A stretch of 64,000 nt of DNA from a virus (Duplodnaviria; Heunggongvirae; Uroviricota; Caudoviricetes), in the IMG/VR virus record IMGVR_UViG_2563366840_000011, positions 12,067 through 76,066 of that record. One strand, 5' to 3'. The position numbers were made by a program, and so were the translations under genes. Under the pieces are notes generated by a model. That model did no database searches and was not told where the DNA came from. It saw only the letters and a list, made by a program, of their open reading frames with translations. Positions 38,709 through 59,086 of this stretch are shown piece by piece; position 1 is the stretch's first letter, and every line of letters starts with the position of its first letter.

Positions 38709-38726
38709 CCACTGAACCCCTTCACC
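38709..38726 (+). promoter_or_regulatory. Conserved late box, copy 1 (upstream of endolysin), candidate late promoter/activator site
   Basis: CCACTGAACCCCTTCACC, then GATTAT, then inverted repeat cgccatcc/ggatggcg (38758-38783) covering the SD region before ATG 38786. Confidence 0.5.
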
Positions 38727-38785
38727 TGATTATTCACCTAACCTGATGAAATACTGACGCCATCCCTTTTTAACCGGATGGCGTT

Positions 38786-39430
38786 ATGCTTTTAACACTC
38801 CCACAATTTCAGCGAGCCGCAGGCCTTTCGCCAGTAATGGCGCAACGCTGGTTTGAACCATTCAGTAAAGCCACCGCTGAATTCGAAATTAATACACCCG
38901 CCCGACTTGCCGCCTTTATTGCTCAAACCGGCCATGAGAGCGCGGGTTTCAGTCGGCTCAGTGAAAATCTCTATTACTCAGATGCTGAGCGCGTGGCGCG
39001 TATTTTCCGCAGCGACTTCGATCTCAATAAGAATCGTATTATCGATCCGAGCGAGGTTGAATTTGCCCGCCGCTATACCCGTAACCCTGAAAAAATGGCC
39101 AATTATGTTTACGCAAATCAGGGGGGTAACGGTAATGAAGCATCAGGCGATGGCTGGCGCTTTCGCGGACGTGGCCTGATTCAGATTACCCTGCGCAATA
39201 ATTACCGCCTTTGCGGTAAGGCGCTGGGCCTCGATCTCATCGCGGATCCCGATTTGTTACTGGAGTATCTCAACGCAGCCCGCAGCGCTGCCTGGTACTG
39301 GAAGGCAAATGGCTGCAACGAGCTGGCTGACAAAGGCAATTTTCTGGCCGTAACCCGGCGTATCAACCCTCCGGCTGAAGGTCAGGCTGACCGCGTGGCG
39401 CGGCTGAATGTCGCTAAGGCGGCGCTATGA
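38786..39430 (+). CDS. Endolysin, glycoside hydrolase family 19 (chitinase-like) type
   Basis: 214-aa ORF ...ARLAAFIAQTGHESAGFSRLSENLYYS...GRGLIQITLRNNYRLCGKALGLDL...: GH19-lysin-like motifs; followed by membrane proteins and spanins. Confidence 0.75.
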   Translation: MLLTLPQFQRAAGLSPVMAQRWFEPFSKATAEFEINTPARLAAFIAQTGHESAGFSRLSENLYYSDAERVARIFRSDFDLNKNRIIDPSEVEFARRYTRNPEKMANYVYANQGGNGNEASGDGWRFRGRGLIQITLRNNYRLCGKALGLDLIADPDLLLEYLNAARSAAWYWKANGCNELADKGNFLAVTRRINPPAEGQADRVARLNVAKAAL

Positions 39431-39690
39431 AAATATCTCTGCGCGATCTGGTGACGAACCCGGCCACCGGTCGTCTCTCTACGTCAGACACCATCGTTTT
39501 TCTGGCCTTCCTGGTCAGTTCCTTCGTACTGGTCTGGCTCACCGTTACCCGCCCCGAAACTCCTGGTGAGCTGTATCTCACCTATCTGGGCGCGTGGGTG
39601 GCTCAGAGTCAGGCATCAAAACATATGTCCATCAAACGAGCCAGAGAGGTGCGCGATGTGGGAAGCAGCCCAGAAAATCCTGAGGGTTAG
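39427..39690 (+). CDS. Small single-TMD membrane protein (candidate holin or lysis accessory)
   Basis: 87-aa ORF with TMD IVFLAFLVSSFVLVWLTV; directly after the endolysin. Confidence 0.45.
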   Translation: MKISLRDLVTNPATGRLSTSDTIVFLAFLVSSFVLVWLTVTRPETPGELYLTYLGAWVAQSQASKHMSIKRAREVRDVGSSPENPEG

Positions 39691-40288
39691 CTGGAAACCG
39701 CTGCTCGTCGTCGTGGTTCTGACAGGCAGCGGGATATGGTTCGGCACCTTCCTCACAGGCAACAAGCTGGACGCTCAGGCGCTGGCCTTCAGCCAGGAGA
39801 AGCAACGCCTGACTGATGGTTTCAGTGAAAAAGAACGGCAGTGGGATCAGGAGAGGCTCGGCGCTGCAAATCAGTATGCAGCTAACCTGAAGGCTGCACT
39901 TGATAAGCAGAACGCCTGGCAGCAGAAAGCGGATGCGCTGACCCGCGAGCTGGCTGAAAAGCAAAAGGCACATGACGAGACTGTTCGCGATCTTAAAAAG
40001 AGGCTTAAAGATGCACTTGATAAAGATGGTCCTGGTTATACCGGCATTGGCCCTGGCGGCCTGCAGCTCTTCCGTGAAGCCTTTGGCTACTCAGGATCCG
40101 AAAGCCTCCCCGCTGGTCAGCATCTGCCAGCCACCGCCAGCGGCGCTCCTGGTCATACCGGCCAGACCACAGGCACCGGTGGCGGACTCTCCCCCACTGG
40201 AATAGTGTCGTTTTCAGCGGAATACGGCGCATGGTGCCAGCTCATTGAGGGCAGGCTGCAGGCAATAAATGAGTATTACAGGAAGTGA
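39656..40288 (+). CDS. i-spanin (Rz-like)
   Basis: ATG at 39656 after GAGG: MWEAAQKILRVSWKPLLVVVVLTGSGIWFGTF... N-terminal TMD then coiled-coil-like region (...QERLGAANQYAANLKAALDKQNAWQQKADALTRELAEKQKAHDETVRDLKKRLKD). Confidence 0.7.
   Translation: MWEAAQKILRVSWKPLLVVVVLTGSGIWFGTFLTGNKLDAQALAFSQEKQRLTDGFSEKERQWDQERLGAANQYAANLKAALDKQNAWQQKADALTRELAEKQKAHDETVRDLKKRLKDALDKDGPGYTGIGPGGLQLFREAFGYSGSESLPAGQHLPATASGAPGHTGQTTGTGGGLSPTGIVSFSAEYGAWCQLIEGRLQAINEYYRK
40011..40205 (+). CDS. o-spanin (Rz1-like lipoprotein) embedded in the i-spanin +1 frame
   Basis: MHLIKMVLVIPALALAAC SSSVKPLATQDPKASPLVSICQPPPAALLVIPARPQAPVADSPPLE: lipobox LAAC, Pro-rich mature part; start could be 40026. Confidence 0.65.
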   Translation: MHLIKMVLVIPALALAACSSSVKPLATQDPKASPLVSICQPPPAALLVIPARPQAPVADSPPLE

Positions 40289-40539
40289 ACAACATCATGA
40301 CTCTTGATATGGCCTTTCAGATTGCGCTGGCGCTGGCTGCAACCTTCGGCACCATCTGGATACGCCGTCTGCAAAAAGACATTACCGACCTGGAAAAGGC
40401 GGTTGATCGCATCCGGGATGAATACCAGCGCCGTGAGGATGCGAAAAGTAACTACACCGCAATGATGGATGCGATGAGGGAGCTGCGAGCGGCTATCGAG
40501 CGCATTGATAACAAACTGGACAGGAAACAGGACAAATGA
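40285..40539 (+). CDS. Small membrane-anchored coiled-coil protein
   Basis: 84-aa ORF MNNIMTLDMAFQIALALAATFGTIWIRRLQKDITDLEKAVDRIRDEYQRREDAKS... Confidence 0.45.
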   Translation: MNNIMTLDMAFQIALALAATFGTIWIRRLQKDITDLEKAVDRIRDEYQRREDAKSNYTAMMDAMRELRAAIERIDNKLDRKQDK

Positions 40540-40820
40540 AAGCCAGACATAAGCGCAGAACCCGCCGCGCGACAATCAGCCAGAGCGAGCAGGAAACGCT
40601 GAGCCGGATTTCCGCTCAGCTCGAACGCCTGCAGCCCCCCGTCAGCCCGGACATTCTGGGCGGGATTAATGACAAGCTGAGCCGAATTGATGTTCGCCTC
40701 ACGACCATCAGCGACGATGCGGCTAGCCGTGGTGCGTCTGCCGGTGCGATTACGGGTGGAATTGCAGGCGGTGTCATCACTGTGGCGATTCTGCTCATTC
40801 GCGCAAAACTGGAGCTGTGA
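40536..40820 (+). CDS. Small protein with C-terminal TMD
   Basis: 94-aa ORF ...RGASAGAITGGIAGGVITVAILLIRAKLEL. Confidence 0.45.
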   Translation: MKARHKRRTRRATISQSEQETLSRISAQLERLQPPVSPDILGGINDKLSRIDVRLTTISDDAASRGASAGAITGGIAGGVITVAILLIRAKLEL

Positions 40821-40821
40821 T

Positions 40822-41322
40822 ATGGCGCATCCGCAGGAAACACGGGAAAAACTGCGACGATCTTATATCTTCGGCCAGATGTCGCTCGAAATCGCCTCCG
40901 CTCAGGCTGGCGTGGCATTTGCGACAGCTCGCCGCTGGAAGAAGGAAGCACAGGACGCAGGCGATGACTGGGACAAGTTACGCGCCGCTCACCTTATGGC
41001 CGGGAATGGTCTTGAGGAGATTGGCCGCGCCATTCTCACCGGGTTAATGACCCAGTATCAGACCACGCTGGAACTGCTGACAACCGAGTCTCAGCTCCCT
41101 CCGGGGGAACGCGTCGAGCTTCTGGCAAGCCTTGCCGATGCATTTAACAAAGCCGTCGCAGCAAACAAGAAAATACTGCCGGAGGTGAGTCAGCTGGCGG
41201 TGGCGCTGGATGTTATCCAGAAGCTCAGCGCATTTGTCGCCGAGCACTATCCGAAGCATCTGGCAGCGTTCGTGGAAATCCTTGAACCCTTCGGCAAGGA
41301 GATGGAGCAACACTATGGCTGA
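40822..41322 (+). CDS. Candidate terminase small subunit (Mu gp27-like, N-terminal HTH)
   Basis: ATG at 40822: MAHPQETREKLRRSYIFGQMSLEIASAQAGVAFATARRWKKEAQDAGDDWDK...; precedes the terminase large subunit. Confidence 0.6.
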   Translation: MAHPQETREKLRRSYIFGQMSLEIASAQAGVAFATARRWKKEAQDAGDDWDKLRAAHLMAGNGLEEIGRAILTGLMTQYQTTLELLTTESQLPPGERVELLASLADAFNKAVAANKKILPEVSQLAVALDVIQKLSAFVAEHYPKHLAAFVEILEPFGKEMEQHYG

Positions 41323-41521
41323 CCAGTTAATCCGGGTTAACAGTGAAAACTATGTGATGGCCAGTGACGTGCTGGGTGTCCGGTTCGCGGGCGGCAGAAA
41401 CGTAACCGTCGCGACGTCGACAGGCTGCTACAGCCTCGATGTTGATCGAGATAAAACCGGCATCGAGTCGATGAACCGCTTCATCAGCGAGGTTAATAAA
41501 GCCCTCCGCAATCATCATTAA
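41315..41521 (+). CDS. Hypothetical protein
   Basis: ATG at 41315: MADQLIRVNSENYVMASDVLGVRFAGGRNVTVATSTGCYSLDVDRDKTGIESMNRFISEVNKALRNHH. Confidence 0.45.
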   Translation: MADQLIRVNSENYVMASDVLGVRFAGGRNVTVATSTGCYSLDVDRDKTGIESMNRFISEVNKALRNHH

Positions 41522-41545
41522 CAGGCTGTTAAGGGCAAATTAATC

Positions 41546-43195
41546 ATGGCCAGAACTAAGTTATCCAGCAAAGATTTTCTTGCCGAACTGGCGGAACTTT
41601 CCGCCAGTCTTCGTCGCACCATTGAAGCCGAAGATGTGGGCTTTGACCCCTCCGCAGCTGCAATTGCTGAGCGTCGCGGCCTCGTTGCTGACCCTGTAAC
41701 GGGGTTTGAATACTTTGTGCAGCATTATTTTCCGCACTATGTCCGCCATGCCGCCCGCAGTGAGCTGCATAACTATCTCTATAAGCGTCTGCCTGAAATC
41801 ATCCAGGCCACGGGGAGCCAGAACGATGCAATAGCGGCTCCCCGTGGTGAAGCCAAATCCACCATCGTGAGTCAGCTTTTTGTCATCTGGTGCATTGTGC
41901 TGGCGCTCAAGCATTACCCGGTCATCATTATGGACTCCATCGACCAGGCCTATCCGATGCTGGAGGCGATAAAGGCGGAACTGCAGTTTAACCCCCGTCT
42001 GCTGATGGACTTTCCTGAAGCGACGGGCGGTGGCCGCGTCTGGCAGGCCGGGACAATTCTCACCCGCAACGACATTAAGGTGCAGGTCGCCGGTAGTGGT
42101 AAAAAGTTGCGTGGCCTGCGCCATGGCCCGTATCGTCCAGACCTGGCTGTGCTCGATGATATCGAGAACGACGAGCTGGTGCGTAACCCTGAGCAGCGTG
42201 ACAAGCTCGATAACTGGCTCAAAAAAACCGTCCTGCCGCTCGGTGGTGCGGGGGCCAAGTTCGATGTGGTGTATATCGGGACAATCCTGCACTACGATTC
42301 CGTGCTTTCCCGCACCCTTAAAAATCCGCTATGGACGCGGGCCCGGTTCAAAGCGCTCATCAGCTGGCCGCACAATATGTCGCTGTGGGATAAATGGGAA
42401 GAGATCCTGCGCAACAACGATGAAGATGGTCAGGTTCTGGCGCAGGCATATTACCGTGAGCATCAGGCTGAGATGGATGAAGGAGCTGTTGTTTCATGGG
42501 CTGCGCGTCCGCTTTATGCATTGATGCTCATCCGCGCCCGTGATGGCCACAGTACCTTTGATGCGGAATATCAGAACGATCCCGTCAGCGGCGAAGATGC
42601 GCCATTTACCGGCTGCATTAACTTCTGGGTCAACCGCCTTAACGAGTGGCGCTTCTATGGCGCATGTGACCCCAGCCTGGGTAAACACGGTAACAGCCGC
42701 GACCCTTCCGCATTACTGGTCGGTGGCTTCAACCGCTTCACCGGCATTCTGGATGTGGTCGAAGCGCGTATCCGTAAGCGTGTGCCGGACAAAATTATCT
42801 CTGACGTTATCGAGCTGCAGCGGGAATATAACTGTCTGGTCTGGGCGGTCGAGTCCGTCCAGTTCCAGGAGTTCCTGCGCACCGAACTGGTGAAGCGCTC
42901 CGCTGCGATGGGTATCCCCGTTCCTGCCAGGGCCGTCACGCCTTCGGTTGATAAGCTCCTGCGCATTGAGTCACTGCAGCCACATATGGCCAACGGCCTG
43001 ATACGGCTGCACCCTTCCCAGACCACACTTATCGACCAGCTCCGGCATTTCCCCAAAGCTGACCATGATGACGGGCCAGATGCCCTGCATATGCTCTGGA
43101 TGCTGGCCGTTTCCGGCGCTGGTAATTTTGAATTTAAAGCTGTTCCCCGTCGTGGCCATAGCGGAGACAGGTTCGGTCCTTCAGGAGGATTTTGA
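41546..43195 (+). CDS. Terminase large subunit (Mu gp28-like)
   Basis: 549-aa ORF; ATPase-like N-terminal region (...APRGEAKSTIVSQLF..., ...LAVLDDIEND...) and nuclease-like C-terminal region; Mu-like late gene order. Confidence 0.85.
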   Translation: MARTKLSSKDFLAELAELSASLRRTIEAEDVGFDPSAAAIAERRGLVADPVTGFEYFVQHYFPHYVRHAARSELHNYLYKRLPEIIQATGSQNDAIAAPRGEAKSTIVSQLFVIWCIVLALKHYPVIIMDSIDQAYPMLEAIKAELQFNPRLLMDFPEATGGGRVWQAGTILTRNDIKVQVAGSGKKLRGLRHGPYRPDLAVLDDIENDELVRNPEQRDKLDNWLKKTVLPLGGAGAKFDVVYIGTILHYDSVLSRTLKNPLWTRARFKALISWPHNMSLWDKWEEILRNNDEDGQVLAQAYYREHQAEMDEGAVVSWAARPLYALMLIRARDGHSTFDAEYQNDPVSGEDAPFTGCINFWVNRLNEWRFYGACDPSLGKHGNSRDPSALLVGGFNRFTGILDVVEARIRKRVPDKIISDVIELQREYNCLVWAVESVQFQEFLRTELVKRSAAMGIPVPARAVTPSVDKLLRIESLQPHMANGLIRLHPSQTTLIDQLRHFPKADHDDGPDALHMLWMLAVSGAGNFEFKAVPRRGHSGDRFGPSGGF

Positions 43196-43197
43196 TA

Positions 43198-44766
43198 ATG
43201 GTTCAGATTCTTGACCAGTATGGTCGCCCGCTTAATAAAGAGGTGCTTAAAGCCCCCCAGACCTCCCGCACGTTCGAGCTTCAGCGCGACTGGCCAACTC
43301 ACCCCTCGCGGGGTATGACCATTGCCCGTCTTCCTCGTTTGCTTGAAGCGGCTGAGCGCGGCGATCTGGCGGCTCAGGCTGACCTCTTCGAAGATATGGT
43401 TGAGCGGGACGGGCATATTTTTTCCGAAATGGCCAAGCGCAAGAATGCGCTGCTTACTCTGGACTGGAGCATCGAGCCACCGCCGAACGCGACGGCGGAA
43501 GAAAAGCAGATCGCCGCGATGGTGGCCAGCTGGTTCGCTGACCTTCAGGAAATGGAAGATATTACCCTGAACGCGGCGGAAGCTATCGGGCATGGTTTTT
43601 CTGCTCAGGAGATTGAAAAGTGGGAACTTGACGGCAATCTGTGGTTGCCCGTCAAAATCAAACTGCGTCCGCATCGCTGGTTCTGTACCACGCCGGAAGC
43701 CGGGGACGAGGTGCGTCTTAACACCGGCACGCTGGGTGGAGAAGAGCTCTGGCCGTTTGGCTGGCTGGTGCATACGCACAACGCCAAGTCAGGTTATATC
43801 GCGCAGTCAGGGTTATACCGCGTGCTGGTCTGGCCGTATCTGTTTAAAAACTACAGCGTGCGCGATCTCGCTGAGTTCCTTGAAATCTACGGACTGCCGC
43901 CGCGTATCGGGTCGTATATGTCCGGGGCCAGCCAGGATGAGCAGGATAAACTCATGGAAGCGCTGGTCAGTATCGGTCATAACGCATCGGGGATTATTCC
44001 TGACAACACCAAAATCGAATTTAAGGATGCCGCCGAGGGGCAGTCTGATCCTTTCATGGCGATGATTAACTGGTGCGAGCGTACCGAATCAAAGGTCATT
44101 CTCGGCGGCACGCTGACGTCACAGGCGGACGGTAAGTCCTCAACAAACGCCCTTGGTAATGTGCATAACGAAGTCCGTCACGATCTCCTGACCGCTGATG
44201 CCCGACAGCTGGAAGGGTTTTATCGAGGCTTCATTCGTATGTTACTGGCCATTAATGGTTATAACGTCAGCCCGCGCCGTCAGCCGCGTCTGGTATTTGA
44301 TACCCGCGAGCTGGAGAGCATTGAAACCTTTGCCAATGGTGTTTCCGCACTGGTACGCGCCGGGATGGACACTATTCCGACCTCATGGATACACAAAAAG
44401 GTCGGGATTCCGGTACCAAAAGATAACGAAGCTGTGCTGACGCCGCCTGCTGCACCCTCTCCGGTGGGGCTGAGCACCACGCCGGTATTCCGCCATTTCA
44501 CGGCACTCAGCACCACGGGTGAGGTTATTGACCCTGCGCAGGATGCGCTGGACAGCGCCACATCGCCAGGGGAGAGCATCGCGGTGGCCATGGATAAGCT
44601 GATTGCGCCGCTGGTCTCGGCTCTGAGCAAGGGGCAAAGCCCTGATGAGGCACTGGATATCATTGCTGCGAGTTATCCTCAGCTGGATGATGCGCAGCTG
44701 CAACAGCTGATAAAGCAGGCGCTTTTTGTCAGCGAGGTCTGGGGGCGACTCAATGCCGAAAGCTGA
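43198..44766 (+). CDS. Portal protein (Mu gp29-like)
   Basis: ATG at 43198, 9 nt after AGGAGG: MVQILDQYGRPLNKEVLKAPQTSRTFELQRDWPTHPSRGMTIARLPRLLEAAERGDL...; about 520 aa; follows terminase. Confidence 0.85.
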   Translation: MVQILDQYGRPLNKEVLKAPQTSRTFELQRDWPTHPSRGMTIARLPRLLEAAERGDLAAQADLFEDMVERDGHIFSEMAKRKNALLTLDWSIEPPPNATAEEKQIAAMVASWFADLQEMEDITLNAAEAIGHGFSAQEIEKWELDGNLWLPVKIKLRPHRWFCTTPEAGDEVRLNTGTLGGEELWPFGWLVHTHNAKSGYIAQSGLYRVLVWPYLFKNYSVRDLAEFLEIYGLPPRIGSYMSGASQDEQDKLMEALVSIGHNASGIIPDNTKIEFKDAAEGQSDPFMAMINWCERTESKVILGGTLTSQADGKSSTNALGNVHNEVRHDLLTADARQLEGFYRGFIRMLLAINGYNVSPRRQPRLVFDTRELESIETFANGVSALVRAGMDTIPTSWIHKKVGIPVPKDNEAVLTPPAAPSPVGLSTTPVFRHFTALSTTGEVIDPAQDALDSATSPGESIAVAMDKLIAPLVSALSKGQSPDEALDIIAASYPQLDDAQLQQLIKQALFVSEVWGRLNAES

Positions 44767-46012
44767 TGTTGATCTGGGGTACGCCATCGGGTTAAAGCCC
44801 GAAGAAGCGATAGCCTACTTTGAGTCGAAGGGCTACACCACCGGCTTTAACTGGCACGATGTTGAAGCCCGCGCCCACGCCACCAGTTTCACCGTGGCGG
44901 GCGTCCTTAAACAGGATGTGCTTGAGGATATTCATCAATCGCTGCGCGAGCATATTGTTAACGGCGGCACGCTCCGGGACTTCGAACGGCAGATTACCCC
45001 AACGTTGATCCGTAAGGGCTGGCTTGCTGACCGTGCCAGGCTGGTCGCCGATGAAGATGGTGTACTGGAGGGTAAACAACTTACGCCACGCCGTCTGCGC
45101 ACCATCTTTGAAACCAATATGCAGGCGGCGTATGGTGCCGGTCGCTATGCGGAGCAGATGGCCAACGCGGAGTTTCGCCCCATATGGGAACGCGTGGCCG
45201 TCATGGATATGCACACCCGGCCACTCCACGCCAGGCTCAATGGTTTCACTGCCCGCTATGACGATCCTGTGTGGCAGTTCATGTACCCGCCTGACGGATA
45301 CCACTGCCGGTGCCGCATTCGCGCCAGAACCCAGGCGGATGCTGACCGCATGGGGATTGAGGTCAAATCGTGGGAGCAGGACATTGTCACGGTACAACAG
45401 GCATGGGGACCAAAAGAAACCCGTGACGTTAAGGCGTTACGCTTCAACGGCGAGCTTTACACGCCTGATGCCGGATTCGGGCACAATCCGGGTCAGGGCT
45501 GGCTCTCTTCTCTCGGACAGCGCCTTATGAATAAATCTGCAACCACCACGCCCCGGATTGCCTCTCAGGCCATCCATGAAACACTGTCTGAACCTGCAGT
45601 GCTGGATGCCGTCAGTGATGATGTGCGTCGCTGGGTCGACACCGTCAGCGTGCGGCAGAAGACCCGTGGCGACCTGAGGCGCGTTGGCGGTATCCAGCCT
45701 GAGCTGCTGAATCGCCTCGAAGAGCGTGGTGTTAACGGTGCGATCACATTAAGCATTCACGAAGAGGATGTCCGGCTGGCTCCGGGCCCGATGTGGTCAG
45801 AGCTTCCCGTTCTGCTACGTCAGCCAGCGGGTGTCTGGCTTGATGATGATGCTCTGGTGTGGCTCCTCTCCGGGCAGAACGGTATCCGCGCGGTGCGTGG
45901 TGTGCAGTCTGACAATGGCTGGCGTCTGTCGCTGATGAACGCCGGTGCCACCGTCACTCCTGGTGATGTGTTATCTGAACGCGCGACGCAGCTGCTGGAG
46001 CTGAAATCATGA
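44753..46012 (+). CDS. Head morphogenesis protein (Mu F-like)
   Basis: ATG at 44753: MPKADVDLGYAIGLKPEEAIAYFESKGYTTGFNWHDVEARAHATSFTVAGVLKQDVLEDIHQSL...; overlaps the portal stop. Confidence 0.8.
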   Translation: MPKADVDLGYAIGLKPEEAIAYFESKGYTTGFNWHDVEARAHATSFTVAGVLKQDVLEDIHQSLREHIVNGGTLRDFERQITPTLIRKGWLADRARLVADEDGVLEGKQLTPRRLRTIFETNMQAAYGAGRYAEQMANAEFRPIWERVAVMDMHTRPLHARLNGFTARYDDPVWQFMYPPDGYHCRCRIRARTQADADRMGIEVKSWEQDIVTVQQAWGPKETRDVKALRFNGELYTPDAGFGHNPGQGWLSSLGQRLMNKSATTTPRIASQAIHETLSEPAVLDAVSDDVRRWVDTVSVRQKTRGDLRRVGGIQPELLNRLEERGVNGAITLSIHEEDVRLAPGPMWSELPVLLRQPAGVWLDDDALVWLLSGQNGIRAVRGVQSDNGWRLSLMNAGATVTPGDVLSERATQLLELKS

Positions 46013-46551: not shown

Positions 46552-46864
46552 GGGCAAATTCGTCCTGTAACGCGCTGTGACGCGTTCAGTCTGATTGTGC
46601 TAGAGTGATTCGCCAAAGAGGTGTTCAGACGTTTTTAAAAGCGGTTTAAAAAGGCCTGGGCTCATAAATGCATTACGGGAGCGGGCAACTGGACACATTC
46701 AAAGCTTTCCTTGATTATTTCACCCCGCAGCAGTGGGTCTTCATTGGCATCTTAGGGGGCTGGTTATAAAGGTTGCTGAGTGGTTCACTGACCGATACTT
46801 TGCCCGCAGGCGTCAGTCTGCTAAACCCGATAAGCCGACAACCAAAGCGATCCTCAGCGATAAT

Positions 46865-46882
46865 CCACTGAACCTCTTCATC
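46865..46882 (+). promoter_or_regulatory. Conserved late box, copy 2 (upstream of protease/scaffold gene), candidate late promoter/activator site
   Basis: CCACTGAACCTCTTCATC, then inverted repeat tggtgccg/cggcacca (46898-46919) abutting ATG 46919; lies in a 370-bp intergenic gap. Confidence 0.5.
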
Positions 46883-46918
46883 TGAACCTCCCCGCAGTGG
46901 TGCCGTATCGTCGGCACC

Positions 46919-48034
46919 ATGAAAAAGACACTCATCGCTTCACTCACCCAGGAAATTAACACCGCTACTCCCGGTGTCATTCAGCTCTTTCCGGCTGGTG
47001 AATTCCGCGCCAGTGATGGTCGCCCGACCGAATGCGCCGCCTGGCTGATGACGCGGGAAATTGCAGAGCGCCTTATTGCCGCTGCTGATGCCCGCGCCAC
47101 CCCCTATGTCCTTGACTACGAACACCAGACCCTTCGGGCCGCTAAAAACGGTCTGCCTGCGCCTGCAGCTGCATTCTTCAAAAAGCTGGAGTGGCGGGAC
47201 GGCGAGGGTTTGTTCGCCATCGATGTCGAGTGGACAGCCGCTGCGGCTGCAATGGTCGAGGCGAAAGAGTATCGCTTTATTTCCCCCGTATTTTCTTACG
47301 ACAAAACCGGTCAGGTGCTGGAGTTGCTTAACGCCGCGCTGACCAATACACCAGCGGTGGACGGGATGGAGGAAGTGTTACTTGCTGCCGCCTCCCTGAT
47401 GGCCGCGCATTTAACCACAGAGGGTCAGACCGAAATGGATGAAGAATTTCTCAATGAGCTACTGAGCAACCTGCGCTGGATGCTCAATCTGCCAACCGCC
47501 TCAACGAAAGAAGAGATTATGGCTGAGCTGCAAAAAATCATCACCATGATTTCCAATGGCCAGGGGACTGCAGCGGCGTCGGTCAGTCTGCTGGATATCC
47601 TGAACCAGAACGCGCAGAGCATCGCCGACCTGTCAGCGAAACTCGACACGCCTGACCCGGCTAAGTGGGTTTCGGTGGAGGTCATGCATTCAGCCGTTCA
47701 GCAGGCAACAGAGCGTGCAGGTGCGGGTAATACCGCCGCACTCGCCACGCAACAGGCTGAAGCGTTGATTACGGTTGCCCTCGGCGACGGTCGTCTGCTT
47801 CCGGCACAGCAGGCATGGGCTGCGTCACTGGCGAAATCCGATCCGGCCAGTCTTACCGCCTTTATCGAAAAAGCGCCAAAGATTGCCGCACTGACGACCA
47901 GTCAGACTCAGGGGCAACCGCCTGCAGGCCTTCCGTCACACCCGTCACAGGGTGCTGAAGATGATGCGATTGACCCGGCCATCTGCTCCATGATGGGCAA
48001 TGACCCGGAAAGCGTCGCGAAATACCTCAAATAA
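46919..48034 (+). CDS. Head protease/scaffold protein (Mu I-like)
   Basis: 371-aa ORF MKKTLIASLTQEINTATPGVIQLFPAGEFRASDGRPTECAAWLMTREIAERL... Confidence 0.8.
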   Translation: MKKTLIASLTQEINTATPGVIQLFPAGEFRASDGRPTECAAWLMTREIAERLIAAADARATPYVLDYEHQTLRAAKNGLPAPAAAFFKKLEWRDGEGLFAIDVEWTAAAAAMVEAKEYRFISPVFSYDKTGQVLELLNAALTNTPAVDGMEEVLLAAASLMAAHLTTEGQTEMDEEFLNELLSNLRWMLNLPTASTKEEIMAELQKIITMISNGQGTAAASVSLLDILNQNAQSIADLSAKLDTPDPAKWVSVEVMHSAVQQATERAGAGNTAALATQQAEALITVALGDGRLLPAQQAWAASLAKSDPASLTAFIEKAPKIAALTTSQTQGQPPAGLPSHPSQGAEDDAIDPAICSMMGNDPESVAKYLK

Positions 48035-48045
48035 AGGAGAGCGAA

Positions 48046-48438: not shown

Positions 48439-48451
48439 TAAGGAGAGAACC

Positions 48452-49767: not shown

Positions 49768-49770
49768 GCC

Positions 49771-52471: not shown

Positions 52472-52484
52472 GGAGTAAACCATA

Positions 52485-52859
52485 ATGGCCCTTGAAGAAT
52501 ATGTTGGCGCGATCGTCATGGAAGTCGACGGCCAGGAAATTGAAGTGACTGACCTCAAGGAAGATGTGACCACTGGACGCAAGCTGGTTAAGACGATGAA
52601 CAAAACGGGACGTGCCAAAGGTTTTTCCCGTGGCATCGAAGAGATCCAGCTGACCGTTACGGTAGTTATCCCGGAATCCGGCGACCTGAACTGGGGCGGT
52701 ATTGAAGGTGCGAAAATCACCCAGTATCCACTTAACAGCAGCGGTAAACGTGTTTCTTACCTGGACTGTTTCAGCACTCAGGTCGGGGCTCAGTATACCG
52801 TCGACAACGAAGCGAAGCGCGATATCACCATGAATGCGCTTCGTCGGGTGGAGGAATAA
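52485..52859 (+). CDS. Tail tube protein (Mu M-like)
   Basis: 124-aa ORF MALEEYVGAIVMEVDGQEIEVTDLKEDVTTGRKLVKTMNKTGRAKGFSRGIEEIQ... Confidence 0.8.
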   Translation: MALEEYVGAIVMEVDGQEIEVTDLKEDVTTGRKLVKTMNKTGRAKGFSRGIEEIQLTVTVVIPESGDLNWGGIEGAKITQYPLNSSGKRVSYLDCFSTQVGAQYTVDNEAKRDITMNALRRVEE

Positions 52860-53252
52860 ATGGAAAAGCAGCAACTTTTATATGGCGTTAAATGCGGTGA
52901 TAAAGTCCATTTTGACTTTGCCGTCAGGCTGCCTGTGGTGAGCGATACCATTGAAGCGCTGCGGGCAACCGATGAAGCCTGCGGCACTACCGAAGGCGCA
53001 GCCGCAAACATGTATTACCGTGTTGCGGTAATGGCGTGTGCGATTACTGCCCTCGGAGATGTGCCAAAGGAAGAAATCACGGCGGAGCTGCTCCTTAACG
53101 AGCTGAATGATGATGATTTCGATCTCATCGATGCTCAGATTGAAGCCATTAAAAAAAAGCGGATGGATTTGAACAAAAGCTCACCGGCTACCGAACCCTC
53201 GTCCTCGCCCTCGGACGATACGGGATCAGTGAACAACAAATCGGAAGCATGA
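52860..53252 (+). CDS. Tail assembly chaperone (short, in-frame product)
   Basis: 130-aa ORF immediately upstream of the tape measure gene; acidic C-terminal region. Confidence 0.7.
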   Translation: MEKQQLLYGVKCGDKVHFDFAVRLPVVSDTIEALRATDEACGTTEGAAANMYYRVAVMACAITALGDVPKEEITAELLLNELNDDDFDLIDAQIEAIKKKRMDLNKSSPATEPSSSPSDDTGSVNNKSEA

Positions 53253-53386
53253 CCCGAACGGAACTCGACGGCTACACCGAAGCGCTTGCCCGGTTACATG
53301 GAAAGAAAACCGGGCAAACCACCACCCGCACAACCCGCACTGTCAAATCGCAACGCCGGAAGAAAGTCGGCAAACGGAGATAGTCC
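52860..53386 (+). CDS. Tail assembly chaperone, predicted -1 frameshift extended product
   Basis: The -1 frame is open from the A AAA AAG heptamer (53153-53159) to TAG at 53384-53386, adding ...ADGFEQKLTGYRTLVLALGRYGISEQQIGSMTRTELDGYTEALARLHGKKTGQ... and ending 1 nt before the tape measure start. Confidence 0.6.
53153..53159 (+). promoter_or_regulatory. Candidate -1 ribosomal frameshift slippery heptamer A AAA AAG
   Basis: In-frame codons AAA AAG (K K) within an 8-A run inside the chaperone gene; the -1 frame has no stop for 227 nt. Confidence 0.6.
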
Positions 53387-55528
53387 ATGGCGCGTAACTT
53401 ACAACTGGCGCTGCAGCTGCTTGCCCGTGATACCGGCTCCAAAGTGCTTAAACAGGCACTGCAGGGCATCAGCCGGGATACCAAAGCGGCGCAAAAAACC
53501 GATGATGAGCTGGCGAAATCCCGTCAGCAGAACTCGACCACAGCGATTCGTGCCTCCCGTTCTCTGATTGAGGAATACCGTCGCGCCAGTTCGGCGCGAG
53601 CAACTCTTGGCATTCGCTCAGAGCGCGAAATACAGCGCGAAATACAGCAGACCATGGCGGCCTATAATCGCCTTACCCGCACAGGTATGCTGTCCGCAAA
53701 TGAGCAGAACCGGGCTTTCAGGGCCATGACTGACAGGGTCAAAGCGCTGCGAACTGAGCTTGGCGGCGTCAATGACTCAATGACGCGCATGCAGCGATTC
53801 CGTGCTGCAGGTTCAACCGTGGCAGCAGTAGCCGGTGGGTTAACTGCTGCGGGTATGATTATAAAAGACCCGGTTCAGCGTCAGATGGCTTACGAACGGC
53901 GTAATGCTGAGATTGCAAATACCGCTTATAACAATCTCTCCGCACCAGACCGTATTAAGAAAATACCTGAGATCAATAATGCAATCCGTGGGGCTGTACG
54001 TTATGGCGGTGGAACGCCAGAGGCCGCACAGGAAACCATTAATTCACTTTTCGCAGGTGGTCTTGATGATAAAACGGCATTAAAAATATTGCCTAATATT
54101 ACTCGTTACGCTACTGCTTCAGGCGCAAATCCGAATGACCTTGCGCGTATTGCTATTGGTGCAATTAAGAACTTTGATATAAAGGCTGAGGATTTACCAG
54201 CGGTATTTGATAAAACCATCAGGTCTGGTGAGAACGGTAAATATGAACTCGCTGATATGGCTGGCTCATTACCATTAACCATGACAAAAGCAAACTCTGT
54301 AGGTATGTCAGGGTTAAAAGATTTGGATGTCATTCTCGCGATGTTACAGGCTAACGCTGAAACAGCAGGTGATAATAGCGCTGCATCAACAAACGTTAAT
54401 AACTTGCTTGATAAATACACCAGTGCTGACACTCAGAATGCGTTAAAAAATAAAAGATTCAGGACTAAAGACGGGAGGATGCTTGCCTATGCTGATTATA
54501 TGGCTGACCAGCGACTTTCAGGAGTGAATACTTCTGATGCATTCACTAATGCTGTATCAGGTATTGTTTCAGCAGACCCACGAGTTAAGAAATTACGGGC
54601 TCAGGCTACCAAATTCAAAGGGACGGACAAGGAGAAAGACATTCTTGCCTCACTGGATATTATTGTTTCCTCCATTACGTCAAAAATAGTTGCTGACCAG
54701 CAGGCCAGTACTGCACTAAAAACAAGCATAATGAAAAAAGACTTCATTAAGGAGCAAATTTCAGGAACACGTGATTCTGTCGGTGCTGGTGCAGCCTCAT
54801 ATGAGGTTATGTCGTCAACAAATGATTTTAAGTCACAACAATTTGAGTCAGAGAAAATGTTTTCTGAACAGGACGCAATGAAACCTGTTGCCGATTTATA
54901 CGGTGATTTGACGTCAAAACTCACCGATTACGCTAAAGAATATCCTGAGCTAACCACGGCTATTTCTGGTGCCACTACTGGCATTAAAGCCATGACAGCG
55001 GCTGCGGTAGCTTTTGCCGGGCTCAACTTTCTGACGGGCGGTGGAATAAAAATGCCAGGCTCTCCTGGAGGTGGAGTGCCACCTGCAGGAGGATCTGCTC
55101 TGGGGCGTGCATGGTCCGTTATTCGTGGCGGAGCTGGCAAGATATTAGCTCCACTGGCTCTTTATCAGGGTATGCAGGATGCCCCACTCGTTCACGTTGA
55201 GCGAGGTGATTCAAATGCACGTTCGCGCCTTAAGGTTGACAATTATTCAAGTCAATCAGAGCGAATGTTGGATGCTGTTAAAGCCCGCCCAGGATTGCTG
55301 GATGCCGTGGATGAGATCAAATCATGGTGGAGTTCTCCGGCCACAGTGGGGCAAAACACACCAGCCACAACAGGCGTACCGTCTTATCTGTTGCCTCAGC
55401 AGCAACAAAAGCCTCAGCCAGTAAACATCACAACTAAAGTCATGCTCGATGAGCGTCAGATTGCCGAGGCCGTCAATCAGTATAATGGCGATCAATCCGT
55501 TCGCGGCTCAACAGGAGGTCCACAGTGA
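53387..55528 (+). CDS. Tail tape measure protein
   Basis: 713-aa ORF after the chaperone genes; central region more AT-rich; C-terminus Gly-rich. Confidence 0.85.
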   Translation: MARNLQLALQLLARDTGSKVLKQALQGISRDTKAAQKTDDELAKSRQQNSTTAIRASRSLIEEYRRASSARATLGIRSEREIQREIQQTMAAYNRLTRTGMLSANEQNRAFRAMTDRVKALRTELGGVNDSMTRMQRFRAAGSTVAAVAGGLTAAGMIIKDPVQRQMAYERRNAEIANTAYNNLSAPDRIKKIPEINNAIRGAVRYGGGTPEAAQETINSLFAGGLDDKTALKILPNITRYATASGANPNDLARIAIGAIKNFDIKAEDLPAVFDKTIRSGENGKYELADMAGSLPLTMTKANSVGMSGLKDLDVILAMLQANAETAGDNSAASTNVNNLLDKYTSADTQNALKNKRFRTKDGRMLAYADYMADQRLSGVNTSDAFTNAVSGIVSADPRVKKLRAQATKFKGTDKEKDILASLDIIVSSITSKIVADQQASTALKTSIMKKDFIKEQISGTRDSVGAGAASYEVMSSTNDFKSQQFESEKMFSEQDAMKPVADLYGDLTSKLTDYAKEYPELTTAISGATTGIKAMTAAAVAFAGLNFLTGGGIKMPGSPGGGVPPAGGSALGRAWSVIRGGAGKILAPLALYQGMQDAPLVHVERGDSNARSRLKVDNYSSQSERMLDAVKARPGLLDAVDEIKSWWSSPATVGQNTPATTGVPSYLLPQQQQKPQPVNITTKVMLDERQIAEAVNQYNGDQSVRGSTGGPQ

Positions 55529-56856
55529 GCTGGGAAGATTCATTACAGGATGCCTCATTCAGGGGCGTCCGCTTCGATGTGGTTAATACCCGTGACAGCG
55601 CCAGCCGCGACATTGCGACGTATGAGTATCCCTATGTCGACGGTGGTGATGTTGATGACCTTGGCCGCAAGCCTCGTAACCTGAGAATGACGGTCCTTTT
55701 CTGGGGTGACGATTACGATGTGCGACTCCAGGCGTTTCTGGCCGCGCTGGATACACGCGGCAGCGCGGAGTTAATACACCCGGTTTTCGGCTCCATGACG
55801 GGCATGCAGTGCATTGAGTATCAGGCATCGCATGAAGCGGAGAACGTTGATTACTGCGTTGTCGAAGTGGTCTTTATCCAGGGGGGACTTAATCTGCCTT
55901 TCTTTGGCAGCGACTTCCCGCTGTCGAAAGCCGATATCATTTTCAACCAGGCGCAATCCGCTCTGGAGAAAGCCCAGACAGCCATCGACAATATTCTCTC
56001 GCCTCTGCGTACAGCGAAAAAGTGGATGAAGAAAGCGAAATCGCTGGCAACAACGACGCTGAATATGGTGACCATGCTTAAGGGGGAACTGACAGGATTT
56101 GTCAGTACCACCTCGGATTTTGTTAATTATCCGAAAGCGTTCATGAATGATCTGCAGAGTGCGCTGAGCCTGACGTCGCTTCAGTCCAAATCAAGTGTCA
56201 GTAATAACCCAGGAAGCTATTCACAGTCCTCAGACGTTTCCGGTACAGCGGGCATCGTGATGGCCGACTGGAAGAATGGCCGTAACAATCTGCAGGAGGT
56301 GGCCGCATTACCTCAGCAAATCGTGACCGGGCAAAAGACGGTTGCTGTTGCTGTTCCGGCAGGCTCATCAACCTCGGATATTACTGAGGTGGTAACGGCG
56401 GTAAAAATCCAGGTTGCAATCCAGCTGGCGCTTGATGCTTCCGACATACTCAGTGACAGCAGCATCAGCGATATTCTGTCTCCAGTCGATATTGAGCAGA
56501 TCACCAACGATACCAGGACGGCCATTCAGACGGCAATCGACCAGACGCGGGACACCTTTGCTGCCGATACGCAAAACGTGAGCGCCGGTGAAACACCGGC
56601 TGGCGTGACATGGCAACCCGTGGTTGAAAGCCTCAAGGATATCGCCCTGACCGTTCAGGAGCTGGGCGCAGCGGTTATTACCAGCAGACCGCCACTGACG
56701 ACGCGAGTGATATTGGCCGACACCAACCTGCATTTGCTGGCCCATCTGTGGTACGAGGACTACACCCGCGCCACCGAGTTGTTGCGTCTCAATCCGACAC
56801 TACGTAATCCTAACAACATCAAAGCCGGTGACGTTCTGAATGCCTACTCAAGATAA
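55525..56856 (+). CDS. DNA circularisation protein (Mu N-like)
   Basis: GTG start after AGGAGG; 443-aa ORF MSWEDSLQDASFRGVRFDVVNTRDSASRDIATYEYPYVDGGDVDDLGRKPRNLRMTVLFWG... Confidence 0.8.
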   Translation: MSWEDSLQDASFRGVRFDVVNTRDSASRDIATYEYPYVDGGDVDDLGRKPRNLRMTVLFWGDDYDVRLQAFLAALDTRGSAELIHPVFGSMTGMQCIEYQASHEAENVDYCVVEVVFIQGGLNLPFFGSDFPLSKADIIFNQAQSALEKAQTAIDNILSPLRTAKKWMKKAKSLATTTLNMVTMLKGELTGFVSTTSDFVNYPKAFMNDLQSALSLTSLQSKSSVSNNPGSYSQSSDVSGTAGIVMADWKNGRNNLQEVAALPQQIVTGQKTVAVAVPAGSSTSDITEVVTAVKIQVAIQLALDASDILSDSSISDILSPVDIEQITNDTRTAIQTAIDQTRDTFAADTQNVSAGETPAGVTWQPVVESLKDIALTVQELGAAVITSRPPLTTRVILADTNLHLLAHLWYEDYTRATELLRLNPTLRNPNNIKAGDVLNAYSR

Positions 56857-58057
56857 AGATTCGCAGAATACAGTGAGCCTGGTTATTGATGGCAAAATCC
56901 ACAGTGCATGGAGCCGCTATCAGATTGACTCCGATTTTCTTATCCCCTCCGATGCCTGGAGTGTAACGCTTGGGCTGCCTGATGGTATTTTCCCTCCGGC
57001 CATTAAACGTGGTGTGCCGGTGCTGGTCAGGGTGGGTAATGATGTTGTCATGTCCGGTCGGGTGGATGTGGTTCAGCGCCGGGTATCCCGTCAGCAGGTT
57101 TCTTTATCTCTTTCCGGTCGCGATGGTGCAGCCGTGCTTGTTGACTGCGCTTCACCCGTTTTTACCTCCCGCCAGCTCAGTCTTGAAGAGGTGATCGCCC
57201 AGGTTGTCAGACCGCTGGGGATAACGAACATCCGCATCGAGGCTGAATCATCCCTGCGTAATGACAAGGTCAGCGTGGAGCCCGGAGAACGTGCGTGGGA
57301 TACCCTTGAGCGTGCAGCTGCTGCACGCGGGTTATGGCCATGGTTTGAGCCAGATGGCACGCTGGTAATTGGAGGGCCGGATTACACAAAAGACCCTGTA
57401 GCCACGCTTGTTCTGAATCGTGACGGTCGGGGAAATAATGTCCTCGATCTCAGTGACCGGTCATCCATTACCGGTGCGTTCTCTGAACTGACAATGCTGG
57501 CACAGGGACACGGCCAGGGGAAAAAGTCAGGAAGACTGGAAGTTATTGACGTTGATGATCAGAGCGCTGAGGCTGAAGACGATGATGATGCCGACGCAAT
57601 TTATGACAGCACCGGCTCTGCAGAGAATGGCTTTCATGGCTTACGTAGTACCGTTCGCGACAGTACCGTACCTTTCTATCGTCCGCAGATTATGGTTGCT
57701 GGTGATGCTGATAATCAGGCGCAGGTTGATTATCGCGCGAGAAAGGCCATGGCTGACGCCCGTCTGAACGGGTTTGATCTGACAGTAATTGTTAAAGGCC
57801 ATCGCATGGAGAACGGTCAGTTATGGCAACCGGGCCAGCGTATTCGTGTCCGAAGCGAGCCGCATGGCATTGATGACATTTACTTCCTCATGGGAAGAGA
57901 GTTTTCAGGTGGTCGTCCAGACAACACCATTACCACCCTGCGGCTCAAAGAGGATGGAATATGGATACCGGATGCTTATCCGAAAAAACGCAAATCACGT
58001 AAGCGTCGCGCCAAAGTAAATAAAGAGCTGGAGATTATCGATGTGGAACAAAATTGA
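56840..58057 (+). CDS. Tail/baseplate hub protein (Mu P-like)
   Basis: 405-aa ORF MPTQDKDSQNTVSLVIDGKIHSAWSRYQIDSDFLIPSDAWSVTLGLPDG... Confidence 0.8.
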   Translation: MPTQDKDSQNTVSLVIDGKIHSAWSRYQIDSDFLIPSDAWSVTLGLPDGIFPPAIKRGVPVLVRVGNDVVMSGRVDVVQRRVSRQQVSLSLSGRDGAAVLVDCASPVFTSRQLSLEEVIAQVVRPLGITNIRIEAESSLRNDKVSVEPGERAWDTLERAAAARGLWPWFEPDGTLVIGGPDYTKDPVATLVLNRDGRGNNVLDLSDRSSITGAFSELTMLAQGHGQGKKSGRLEVIDVDDQSAEAEDDDDADAIYDSTGSAENGFHGLRSTVRDSTVPFYRPQIMVAGDADNQAQVDYRARKAMADARLNGFDLTVIVKGHRMENGQLWQPGQRIRVRSEPHGIDDIYFLMGREFSGGRPDNTITTLRLKEDGIWIPDAYPKKRKSRKRRAKVNKELEIIDVEQN

Positions 58058-58646
58058 CTCTCGTATTAACACGGCGTTAAACCGTATCAGAAAGGCCTTC
58101 AGGGGCGTTTTAATAAGGGTTAACAGCGGCGGTGATATTCAGACCATTCAGGGTAAAGGTCTGGCCACTGAGTCTCTGCAGGATGTGGAGATGTTTCAGC
58201 AGTACGGTTTTACATCCAACCCGCCCAGGGGGACTAAAGCCATTGTGCTCCCGCTTAACGGGCGCACCAGTCATAGCGTGGTGATTGCCACGGAACACGC
58301 TGCATACAGGCTAAAGAGCCTGAAAAGTGGTGAGCTTGCCATTTATTCGGATGAAGGAAGCAACATTATTCTGAAGCGCGGAAAAATAATTGAAGTAAAC
58401 TGCGATGAATATATAGTTAATACTAAAAAGCACACGGTGAATACCGAACAACATATTGTTAATACCAAAACGTATAAAACCACAGCCTCAGAGCGGGCAG
58501 ATTTTGATACACCATTGCTGAAAGGCAGTAATGAAGTCGCTGACGGCAAGTCTACGCTGAACACCATGCGTGAGACTTATGACGGTCACGACCACGACCA
58601 CGGCGGTGATGCAGGCACAACGCAGAAACCTAATCAGCAAATGTAA
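58041..58646 (+). CDS. Baseplate spike/assembly protein (Mu gp45-like) with short tandem peptide repeats
   Basis: 201-aa ORF; repeats YIVNTKKHTVNTEQHIVNTKTY; His/Asp-rich C-terminus GHDHDHGGD. Confidence 0.7.
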   Translation: MWNKIDSRINTALNRIRKAFRGVLIRVNSGGDIQTIQGKGLATESLQDVEMFQQYGFTSNPPRGTKAIVLPLNGRTSHSVVIATEHAAYRLKSLKSGELAIYSDEGSNIILKRGKIIEVNCDEYIVNTKKHTVNTEQHIVNTKTYKTTASERADFDTPLLKGSNEVADGKSTLNTMRETYDGHDHDHGGDAGTTQKPNQQM

Positions 58647-58682
58647 TTTGTGGTAACGTAAGTTCTCCTTCAAAAGCAATAC

Positions 58683-58700
58683 CCACTGAACCCCTTCACC
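58683..58700 (+). promoter_or_regulatory. Conserved late box, copy 3 (upstream of gp46-like baseplate gene), candidate late promoter/activator site
   Basis: CCACTGAACCCCTTCACC, immediately followed by GATAAT, then 10-bp perfect inverted repeat TTCCATGCCG/CGGCATGGAA (58713-58741) containing the first ATG. Confidence 0.55.
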
Positions 58701-58735
58701 GATAATTTAAATTTCCATGCCGGTAGTATTACGGC

Positions 58736-59086
58736 ATGGAAATGTTGATTGATCCAACGACCGGCGATTATACCGGCGACAGCTCAGACTCTTTAGCGAA
58801 TGCCGTCTACTTACGGCTGATGACGCCCCTTGGCTCATGGTGGGCTGATCCAACTCTGGGCTCTCTTTTGCATACACTCCGCCGCGAAAAGGATGTGTCT
58901 CGCGTTCAACAACTCGCGGTGCAGTATTCGCGGCAGGCCCTGCAACCGATTATTGACGACGGTCGCGCCCAGTCCATTTCCGTTACTGCAGAGCACTGGC
59001 AAAAAGGCTGGATGCTGCTTCATATCACCGTCACGTCTGCGAGCGGAACGCCGCAGACCTGGAAATATCCGGTTAAGGTCAGCTGA
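58736..59086 (+). CDS. Baseplate protein (Mu gp46-like)
   Basis: 116-aa ORF MEMLIDPTTGDYTGDSSDSLANAVYLRLMTPLGSWWADPTLGSLLHTL...; translation may start at the second ATG (58742). Confidence 0.7.
   Translation: MEMLIDPTTGDYTGDSSDSLANAVYLRLMTPLGSWWADPTLGSLLHTLRREKDVSRVQQLAVQYSRQALQPIIDDGRAQSISVTAEHWQKGWMLLHITVTSASGTPQTWKYPVKVS

Follow-up and report, generated by a model that had tools for sequence, protein, structure and literature searches.

Candidate activator-dependent late promoters overlapping start-site hairpins in a Mu-like phage and its relatives

In bacteriophage Mu, the activator C recognizes a 16-bp imperfect dyad centered at −43.5 of late promoters that have a −10 element and lack a −35 element (PMC2582627), and the activator Mor recognizes a dyad centered at −43.5 of Pm (PMC4390567). 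The Mu transcription start sites mapped with S1 nuclease are located 7–8 nt past the −10 hexamers (oligonucleotide design in PMC4461284). In phage T4, long upstream transcripts of gene e and I-TevI form a hairpin that covers the site of translation initiation and remain untranslated, and the late promoter of these genes lies in the DNA encoding the 5′ strand of the hairpin; the late RNA, which does not contain this strand, is translated (PMC3014915). Here, we analyzed a 64,000-nt stretch of DNA from a Mu-like member of the Caudoviricetes (IMG/VR record IMGVR_UViG_2563366840_000011, positions 12,067–76,066; hereafter, the window), in which three copies of an 18-bp box, each followed by a hairpin at a start codon, head the late gene blocks. 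We consider it probable that these sites are three Mor-dependent sigma-70 late promoters, whose hairpins silence RNA arriving from upstream and not the RNA initiated at the promoters themselves.

The box, CCACTGAACCyCTTCAyC, was found three times in the window, in all cases on the plus strand, and contained a perfect dyad, TGAA-N4-TTCA. The boxes and the first genes of the blocks that follow them are as follows.

38709–38726, plus strand: box 1, CCACTGAACCCCTTCACC, exact match, dyad at 38713–38724, before the lysis block (putative equivalent of Plys)
38786 (start), plus strand: GH19 endolysin gene, first gene of the lysis block
46865–46882, plus strand: box 2, CCACTGAACCTCTTCATC, two mismatches, dyad at 46869–46880, before the head block (putative equivalent of PI)
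46919–48034, plus strand: gene I, protease/scaffold (Mu-like_Pro, 310 bits), first gene of the head block
58683–58700, plus strand: box 3, CCACTGAACCCCTTCACC, exact match, dyad at 58687–58698, before the baseplate/tail-fiber block (putative functional counterpart of Mu PP)
58736 (start), plus strand: GP46 gene, first gene of the baseplate/tail-fiber block

The initial annotation of this DNA had reported two identical copies of the box and one near-copy at these positions, and our search reproduced them. No further match with three or fewer mismatches was detected in the window; 0.03 matches were expected by chance from 100 shuffles, and none of the 100 shuffles contained three copies. The distances between the end of the box and the ATG were 59, 36, and 35 nt at sites 1, 2, and 3, respectively, in line with the 36–60 bp given earlier. 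The same three start codons were assigned by the NCBI Prokaryotic Genome Annotation Pipeline (PGAP) in a 95%-identical prophage of Escherichia coli FDAARGOS_1303, which is inserted in ydbL and also carries all three boxes.

To survey related phages, as the initial annotation had proposed, IMG/VR was scanned with the box core, and the sites were sorted solely by the protein encoded downstream. Many Mu-sized contigs carried two or three copies each, and chance hits were single and located inside unrelated genes. The 61 unique real sites comprised about 30 before gp46 homologs, 12 before gene I, 11 before endolysin genes, and 7 before mor homologs, and were distributed among Mu-like phages of Enterobacterales, Moraxella, Pseudomonas, and high-GC proteobacteria. 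A generic repeat, such as a repetitive extragenic palindromic element or a miniature inverted-repeat transposable element, was rejected as an explanation of the box because, in the viral and genome scans, real copies were found only in Mu-like elements and at three or four fixed gene positions. The concern that the box might be a common repeat at non-promoter positions was thus not substantiated. We found no annotated phage closely related to the window by DNA sequence, the best match being 72% identity over terL with the DMS3 group, and a query with the high-GC sites against the phage collection gave no match.

A fourth candidate promoter, located before terL, was also considered. The box-like sequence TCGATGAACCGCTTCATC (41468–41485), 78 nt before terL, contains both dyad halves and is accompanied by AATCAT at +42. 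We treated it as a chance occurrence because it is contained in a small variable gene and was found in no phages but the closest relatives, one of which (L094) has a mutated copy; distant phages have no counterpart.

Alignment of the 61 unique sites revealed a second conserved element downstream of the box. A hexamer, nAnnnT, with A2 and T6 invariant among the relatives, occupied +41 to +46 from the box start in 59 sites and was found at +42 in the other two, which places it 31.5 nt (59 sites) or 32.5 nt (two sites) from the dyad center. This spacing was unchanged whether the hairpin surrounded the hexamer (gene I and gp46 sites), followed it (lysis and mor sites), or preceded it (L035, L077, and L113), indicating that the hexamer belongs to the box rather than to the hairpin. 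The hexamers in the window are as follows.

38750–38755, plus strand: −10 hexamer AATACT of promoter 1, abutting the 5′ arm of hairpin 1; predicted transcription start near A38762
46906–46911, plus strand: −10 hexamer TATCGT of promoter 2, forming the loop of hairpin 2; predicted transcription start at A46919
58724–58729, plus strand: −10 hexamer TAGTAT of promoter 3, in the loop of hairpin 3; predicted transcription start at A58736

When the start is placed from this geometry at 7 nt past the hexamer, the dyad center falls at −43.5. Since the Mu Mor and C sites stand at this position, the boxes are best read as the activator sites of Mu-like late promoters, equivalent to Plys, PI, and PP. The parallel with the activator-dependent late promoters of Mu drawn in the initial annotation therefore holds in the position of the dyad and in the presence of a −10 element without a −35 element; together with the activator gene described below, the window agreed with Mu-type Mor/C-dependent promoters in every sequence feature tested. 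A sigma-70 consensus scan called no promoter and found no −35 hexamer at the three sites of the window, in keeping with promoters that lack this element. Recognition by an alternative sigma factor or a phage RNA polymerase was also considered and rejected: no element was conserved 16–17 nt past TGAACC, genes for a polymerase or sigma factor were not seen, and what is conserved is the sigma-70-type nAnnnT hexamer.

The presumed reader of the box is the product of the following gene.

37767–38201, plus strand: Mor/C-family activator gene, 144 amino acids (Pfam PF08765, Mor, 34.8 bits with a cutoff of 24.9; PHROG 836)

The protein matched PHROG 836, "late transcriptional activator", with an E-value of 2.5e-39, and its E. 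coli ortholog is labeled a Mor family protein by PGAP. Neither phmmer nor the Pfam scan detected a second Mor/C paralog in the window, in agreement with the single gene reported initially. The genes located just upstream of the sites were a GemA-like gene, the single Mor-family gene, a gpG homolog, and gp45. The 168-amino-acid open reading frame (ORF) between mor and the lysis promoter (38201–38707) has a GC content of 35–40%, compared with 52–58% around it, has a match in PHROG 29261 (unknown function) but none in Pfam, and is replaced by other sequence in two relatives (L063 and L094). The early operon seems to end in a slot for morons or accessory genes.

Comparison of Mor homologs with their boxes indirectly supports the assignment of Mor to the box. 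Klebsiella phage ST405-OXA48phi1.1, whose Mor is 76% identical to that of the window, carries a variant box, CCACTGAAGCCCTTCAAC, at the lysis, gene I, and gp46 sites. Haemophilus phage SuMu (39%) carries its own dyad, GGAA-N4-TTCC, at the same three sites with the same 31.5-nt spacing, and Pseudomonas phage DMS3 (about 31%) retains TGAACCCCTTC(A/C) after mor and before gene I. The box thus changes with the phage lineage, and box and activator appear to vary together. The helix-turn-helix region was the part most alike among the Mor proteins that share the box. In four prophages of the Photorhabdus/Xenorhabdus/Morganella type (L014, L078, L105, and L137), mor is flanked by two boxes: an upstream one, CCACTGAACCCCTTCAAC, is followed by AATACT, a canonical terminator, a Shine–Dalgarno (SD) sequence, and mor, and a downstream one, CTGCTGAACCCCTTCAAA, heads the lysis genes. 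Because mor is the first box-driven gene in this subgroup, positive autoregulation is implied.

These observations also bear on the possibility that the box is read by a protein other than Mor, such as the GemA-like product, another early protein, or a host factor. Such a protein could switch mor on in the subgroup in which the box precedes mor, and it would suit the fact that the box type does not track overall Mor identity. The box before mor is, however, equally compatible with positive autoregulation, a Mor homolog is encoded upstream of the first box in every phage in which that region was inspected, and the dyad symmetry, the −43.5 position, and the missing −35 element fit the experimentally defined mode of Mor and C. 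We regard a non-Mor reader as very unlikely.

Each box in the window is followed by an inverted repeat, as the initial annotation had described, and the stems were as long as or longer than claimed.

38755–38786, plus strand: hairpin 1, 38755–38765 pairing with 38776–38786, 10-nt loop
46897–46920, plus strand: hairpin 2, GUGGUGCCG / CGGCACCAU, 46898–46905 pairing with 46912–46919, enclosing the −10 hexamer and ending on the AUG
58711–58743, plus strand: hairpin 3, 58711–58722 pairing with 58732–58743, 12 bp with a 9-nt loop

Hairpin 1 consists of nine Watson-Crick pairs, one G·U, and one U-A pair (−16.6 kcal/mol, z-score −5.1 versus shuffles); its 3′ arm contains an SD-like GGAUGG, terminates on the A of the endolysin ATG, and is followed by a U-rich tail, UUAUGCUUUU. 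Hairpin 2 has eight Watson-Crick pairs and one G·U pair (−16.4 kcal/mol, z-score −5.2), and hairpin 3 reaches −19.3 kcal/mol (z-score −5.7). The repeats had been said to contain or abut the ribosome-binding region or the ATG. The ATGs of the endolysin gene (38786) and gene I (46919) were indeed located at the final base of hairpins 1 and 2, respectively, and the gp46 ATG with the next five bases was inside the 3′ arm of hairpin 3. When read-through RNAs of 126–131 nt were folded, the stems stayed over the SD or the AUG, with z-scores of −2.1 to −3.4. RNAs folded from the predicted starts were unstructured, with z-scores of about 0 (+0.3 at site 1, from 38762).

The initial annotation had placed the hairpins within the late transcripts, as a layer of translational or RNA-processing control. 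Late transcripts would then start upstream of the hairpins, and translation would require a Com-like factor, an RNase, or the ribosome to open or process a leader hairpin that occludes the start codon. In RNA that contains them, the hairpins do bury the SD or the AUG; a device of this kind operates at mom of Mu via Com; and the pairing of the start codon covaries (see below). However, the hexamer with its conserved nAnnnT motif and Mu-like spacing forms the loop at sites 2 and 3 and abuts the 5′ arm at site 1, and transcripts containing the entire hairpin would have to start within about 10–14 nt of the box, where no −10 element is found. In addition, site classes differ in where the hairpin lies with respect to the box but not in where the hexamer lies. 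As noted initially, no Com-like zinc-finger protein is encoded: when all window ORFs of 25 or more amino acids were searched by phmmer with Com from Mu and SuMu and with Mu Mom, nothing was obtained at E-values up to 10, and no credible small CxxC..CxxC ORF was found in the window. Start-occluding leader hairpins of this type are therefore highly improbable. The notion of an added control layer survives in a different form, as one that would discriminate between transcripts rather than be opened by a Com-like factor.

Discrimination between transcripts is the simplest reading of the hairpins. Mor, as a product of the early operon, would bind the TGAA-N4-TTCA dyad at about −43.5 and recruit host RNA polymerase to promoters that have a −10 element (AATACT, TATCGT, and TAGTAT, respectively) and lack a −35 element. 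Transcription would begin 7–8 nt past the hexamer, near A38762 and at A46919 and A58736. Because the predicted start falls either inside the 5′ arm or downstream of it, the full hairpin could not form in promoter-initiated RNA, and the complete hairpin would exist solely in RNA entering from upstream, that is, read-through from the early operon or from an upstream late block. In such RNA, the hairpin would bury the SD (site 1) or the AUG (sites 2 and 3) and, in relatives with a U-run, would terminate transcription. The promoter-initiated RNA, without a complete 5′ arm, would be open for translation, and the first gene of each block would be expressed only when its own Mor-dependent promoter fires. 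Upstream RNA would probably reach the sites in the window, since the plus-strand terminator scan found no canonical terminator from mor to box 1 or from gp45 to box 3, and just a weak 5-bp candidate in the gap between the gpG homolog and gene I.

That gap, a 313-bp region of non-coding appearance between the gpG homolog and box 2 (46552–46864), contains gacgTTTTTAAAAgcGGTTTAAAAagg (46630–46655), which resembles the region of the strong gyrase site of Mu (Mu 17879) and the equivalent gap of SuMu. A 50-codon ORF at 46733–46885 had just a weak PHROG hit. In DMS3, the equivalent gap houses an anti-CRISPR gene and aca1.

Sequence variation supports the view that the stem pairing is under selection. 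In 22 enteric gp46 sites, to which the formal covariation test was confined, 79% of the cells were paired, compared with 31–51% in slid registers; six pairs had changes on both sides, and the observed score was matched in none of 500 shuffles. Among these changes, an A→G replacement in the gp46 start codon was offset by T→C in the 5′ arm. Compensatory changes were also found for hairpin 1 in four relatives (L032, L072, L056, and L037). A single consensus structure for the gene I hairpins was dropped, as their stems are in different registers in different phages. At non-Watson-Crick positions, G·U exceeded A·C (22 versus 7), which favors a structure in plus-sense RNA over a DNA cruciform.

The inverted repeats might also act as DNA, either as operators of a dimeric repressor holding the late promoters closed or as cruciform-prone palindromes on the −10 element that aid or impede promoter melting. 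They are centered on the −10 element at sites 2 and 3, and the arms of these two sites have the core TGCCG...CGGCA in common. On the other hand, arm sequences differ among the three sites of one phage and among phages with the pairing retained, the repeat is located downstream of the −10 element at the lysis and mor sites and upstream of it in L035, L077, and L113, and many repeats carry U-runs, which are typical of RNA terminators. Together with the G·U excess, which DNA structure does not favor, these features leave an action at the DNA level hardly probable.

The form of the hairpin varied among relatives. Canonical terminators were present at the hairpin position in the mor-first group, in which AATACT is followed by a stem with a U-run and then by the SD, as well as in L003, L109, L062, and L116, in Moraxella, and at the lysis site of SuMu. 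The 3′ arm of the Moraxella sites is the SD GGGGGA, and at the SuMu lysis site the SD AAGAGG is within the 3′ arm of a terminator reaching to the ATG. In high-GC phages, TAGGAT, TAGAAT, or CATTCT forms the loop of a long terminator stem. In all these relatives, the terminators would be truncated or bypassed by transcription from the predicted promoter start. In SuMu (L241), copies of ACAAGCGGTC, which we take to be the Pasteurellaceae DNA-uptake signal, were observed beside the late promoters and in terminator-like repeats upstream of mor (9440–9625, 18290–18545, and 30405–30530).

These terminators bring up the most serious rival, namely that the hairpins are transcript-boundary elements of the upstream unit (terminators, pause sites, or 3′-end stabilizing or processing elements) and overlap the promoters owing to short intergenic space. 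This explanation is compatible with transcript discrimination and overlaps largely with it. It would account for the canonical stem and U-run terminators at the first late or mor promoter in many relatives and for the terminator-like repeat ATAACCGGCA..TGCCGGTTAT that abuts Plys in Mu; the G·U bias suits a role in read-through RNA, and a translational gate seems redundant at the SD-less sites 2 and 3. However, no U-run follows hairpins 2 and 3 in any relative, and the scan for intrinsic terminators called none of the three window hairpins, which lack a clear U-run and have only the U-rich tail at site 1. Moreover, the pairing is held in register with the start codon, as the offset A→G change illustrates, which would be needless for a mere 3′ stabilizer. 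We consider boundary elements without a gating role unlikely, although they deserve to be taken seriously.

At gp46 sites, the hexamer was followed by 6 nt and ATG in all 29 unique sites, with GTG replacing ATG in three, and at gene I sites, it was followed by 7 nt and ATG in nine of ten unique sites and by 6 nt in the remaining one. No SD was present at either class of sites, and the intervening 6–7 nt consisted of GC-rich stem bases. The encoded N-termini aligned with one another and with Mu gpI. The start expected 7–8 nt past the hexamer thus coincides with the first base of the start codon, which predicts leaderless messages for gene I (5′ end at A46919) and gp46 (5′ end at A58736). At site 1, the predicted start near A38762 is seven bases into the 11-base 5′ arm of hairpin 1, and the endolysin message is predicted to have a leader of about 24 nt.

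The same arrangement was found in DMS3 (L242, NC_008717). In the region 11038–11163, an SD-less ATG (record position 19037) lies 7 nt past the CACCAT hexamer of a TGAACCCCTTCA box, and the conserved N-terminus is encoded from it. The protease/scaffold gene as annotated in RefSeq (start at record position 19163) appears to be truncated by 42 codons (126 nt). In addition, an unannotated 115-codon ORF at 2262–2609 begins 6 nt past the hexamer of the box located after mor.

Several points weigh against our reading of the three sites. All start sites are predictions from geometry, the searched literature having yielded no mapped late 5′ end for relatives, and the binding of Mor to the boxes is deduced from sequence. 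DMS3 (31% Mor identity) retains TGAACCCCTTCA and SuMu (39%) does not, a pattern that overall Mor identity does not predict. Leaderless translation is usually weak in Enterobacteria and the gene I product is needed in quantity; GTG, used at three gp46 sites, is inefficient as a leaderless start codon in E. coli. Nor are leaderless starts universal, since the gene I site of SuMu has an 18-nt spacer. At sites 2 and 3, ribosomes would make little use of an internal AUG with no SD in read-through RNA whether or not a hairpin formed, so that the gate looks redundant there and the hairpin may have another purpose. Finally, the window hairpins have no clear U-run apart from the tail at site 1, the G·U bias is modest, and the sites are not independent.

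Outside the three sites, 21-bp inverted repeats with 90% complementarity (61008–61028 and 62872–62892) bound a 1.86-kb tail-fiber segment with ORFs on the opposite strand, and a recombinase gene (62994–63554) adjoins it. The E. coli relative has the recombinase and a simpler fiber region. Judging by this arrangement, the segment is an invertible host-range switch of the Mu G-segment/Gin type.

The range of phages with the box raises the possibility, to which we give somewhat less than even weight, of an ancestral module in a large Mu-like group comprising phages of E. coli, Klebsiella, Photorhabdus, Haemophilus, and Moraxella, the DMS3/JBD/D3112 phages of Pseudomonas, and phages of high-GC proteobacteria. 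In this module, every Mor-dependent promoter would be nested in a hairpin, the first late genes would be translated solely from leaderless or short-leader RNA, and upstream RNA would be silenced or terminated. Such a module may be new, as we found no description of it in the searched literature. That search, which was incomplete and left the older D3112, B3, and BcepMu work outside, likewise returned no description of the box sequence or of mapped late starts in DMS3/D3112-type phages.

If this is true, the major structural operons of these phages rely on leaderless translation in Gammaproteobacteria, and abundant structural proteins would be made from leaderless mRNAs in enterics and pseudomonads, where leaderless translation is thought to be minor. 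Gene starts would be systematically mis-called, as for the protease/scaffold gene of DMS3 and the ORF after its mor; the prediction accounts for errors in the annotation of SD-less starts. In DMS3-like phages, the late promoter that immediately follows the anti-CRISPR/aca1 locus would be a target for interference from the strong acr promoter. For widespread Mu-like prophages, including the Pseudomonas anti-CRISPR models, the sites provide a testable map of late transcription with one activator, one operator, and three promoters, and the box with the hexamer at +41 is a simple and specific signature for late promoters and true gene starts. What makes these results of interest is how widely and precisely the geometry is conserved, together with the prediction of leaderless messages. 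The Mor/C promoter architecture and the hairpin logic of T4 gene e are already known; what appears to be new is their combination, with no leader predicted at two sites.

Compared with Mu, the window has a Mor/C-family activator, dyads near −43.5, −10 elements without −35 elements, and presumably the use of the host sigma-70 polymerase in common, and its promoters likewise precede the lysis gene and gene I, with a third in the tail/baseplate region. Unlike in Mu, the box is unrelated in sequence to the C and Mor sites, and one activator would lead directly from early to late transcription, without the Mor-to-C relay; this weakens the notion of the same circuit as Mu, not that of the same kind of promoter. 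The third promoter directly precedes gp46, whereas that of Mu is located 360 nt upstream of P, inside gene N. No mom/com is present in the window, and Mu late mRNAs have SD-bearing leaders, whereas two of the three messages here are predicted to be leaderless. Among the Mu promoters, only PI has a small repeat (CTGCTCA..TGAGCAG) spanning the mapped start, which falls within the 5′ arm just before the SD of I; Mu PI may thus be a faint version of the hairpin design.

The hairpin of Mu com/mom likewise covers a late-gene start in a phage of the Mu type. It differs in that the mRNA from the regulated promoter contains it and Com, a zinc-finger protein, opens it, whereas the promoter-initiated RNA of the window should not contain the hairpin. 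Leaderless mRNAs are known in phages, lambda cI from PRM being one. The window resembles it in a start predicted at the A of an AUG with no SD, and differs from it in that a conserved inverted repeat encloses this predicted start and a Mor-type box accompanies it. Gene V of P2, a baseplate gene transcribed from an activator-dependent late promoter, is given as leaderless in reviews, which our literature search did not confirm. In lambda, sib retroregulation of int acts at the 3′ end via RNase III. There, as proposed here, the promoter of origin decides whether the RNA has a complete hairpin and hence the fate of the message; the discrimination in the window would take place at the 5′ end and act on translation or termination.

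In hairpin logic, the window matches T4 gene e, with a hairpin over the SD or AUG in upstream RNA and, by geometry, a promoter within the hairpin DNA, and, as in T4, site 1 of the window guards a lysis gene. The T4 late promoters (TATAAATA) use gp55/gp33, whereas those of the window would use a Mor-type activator and sigma-70. T4 late RNA retains an SD-containing leader, and two of the three window sites are predicted to produce RNA without one. The device in the window, known here from sequence, recurs at each of the three late blocks, is conserved in a broad family of phages, and would carry the T4 gene e principle of a promoter within an inhibitory hairpin over to a phage family and a promoter type that are unrelated to those of T4.

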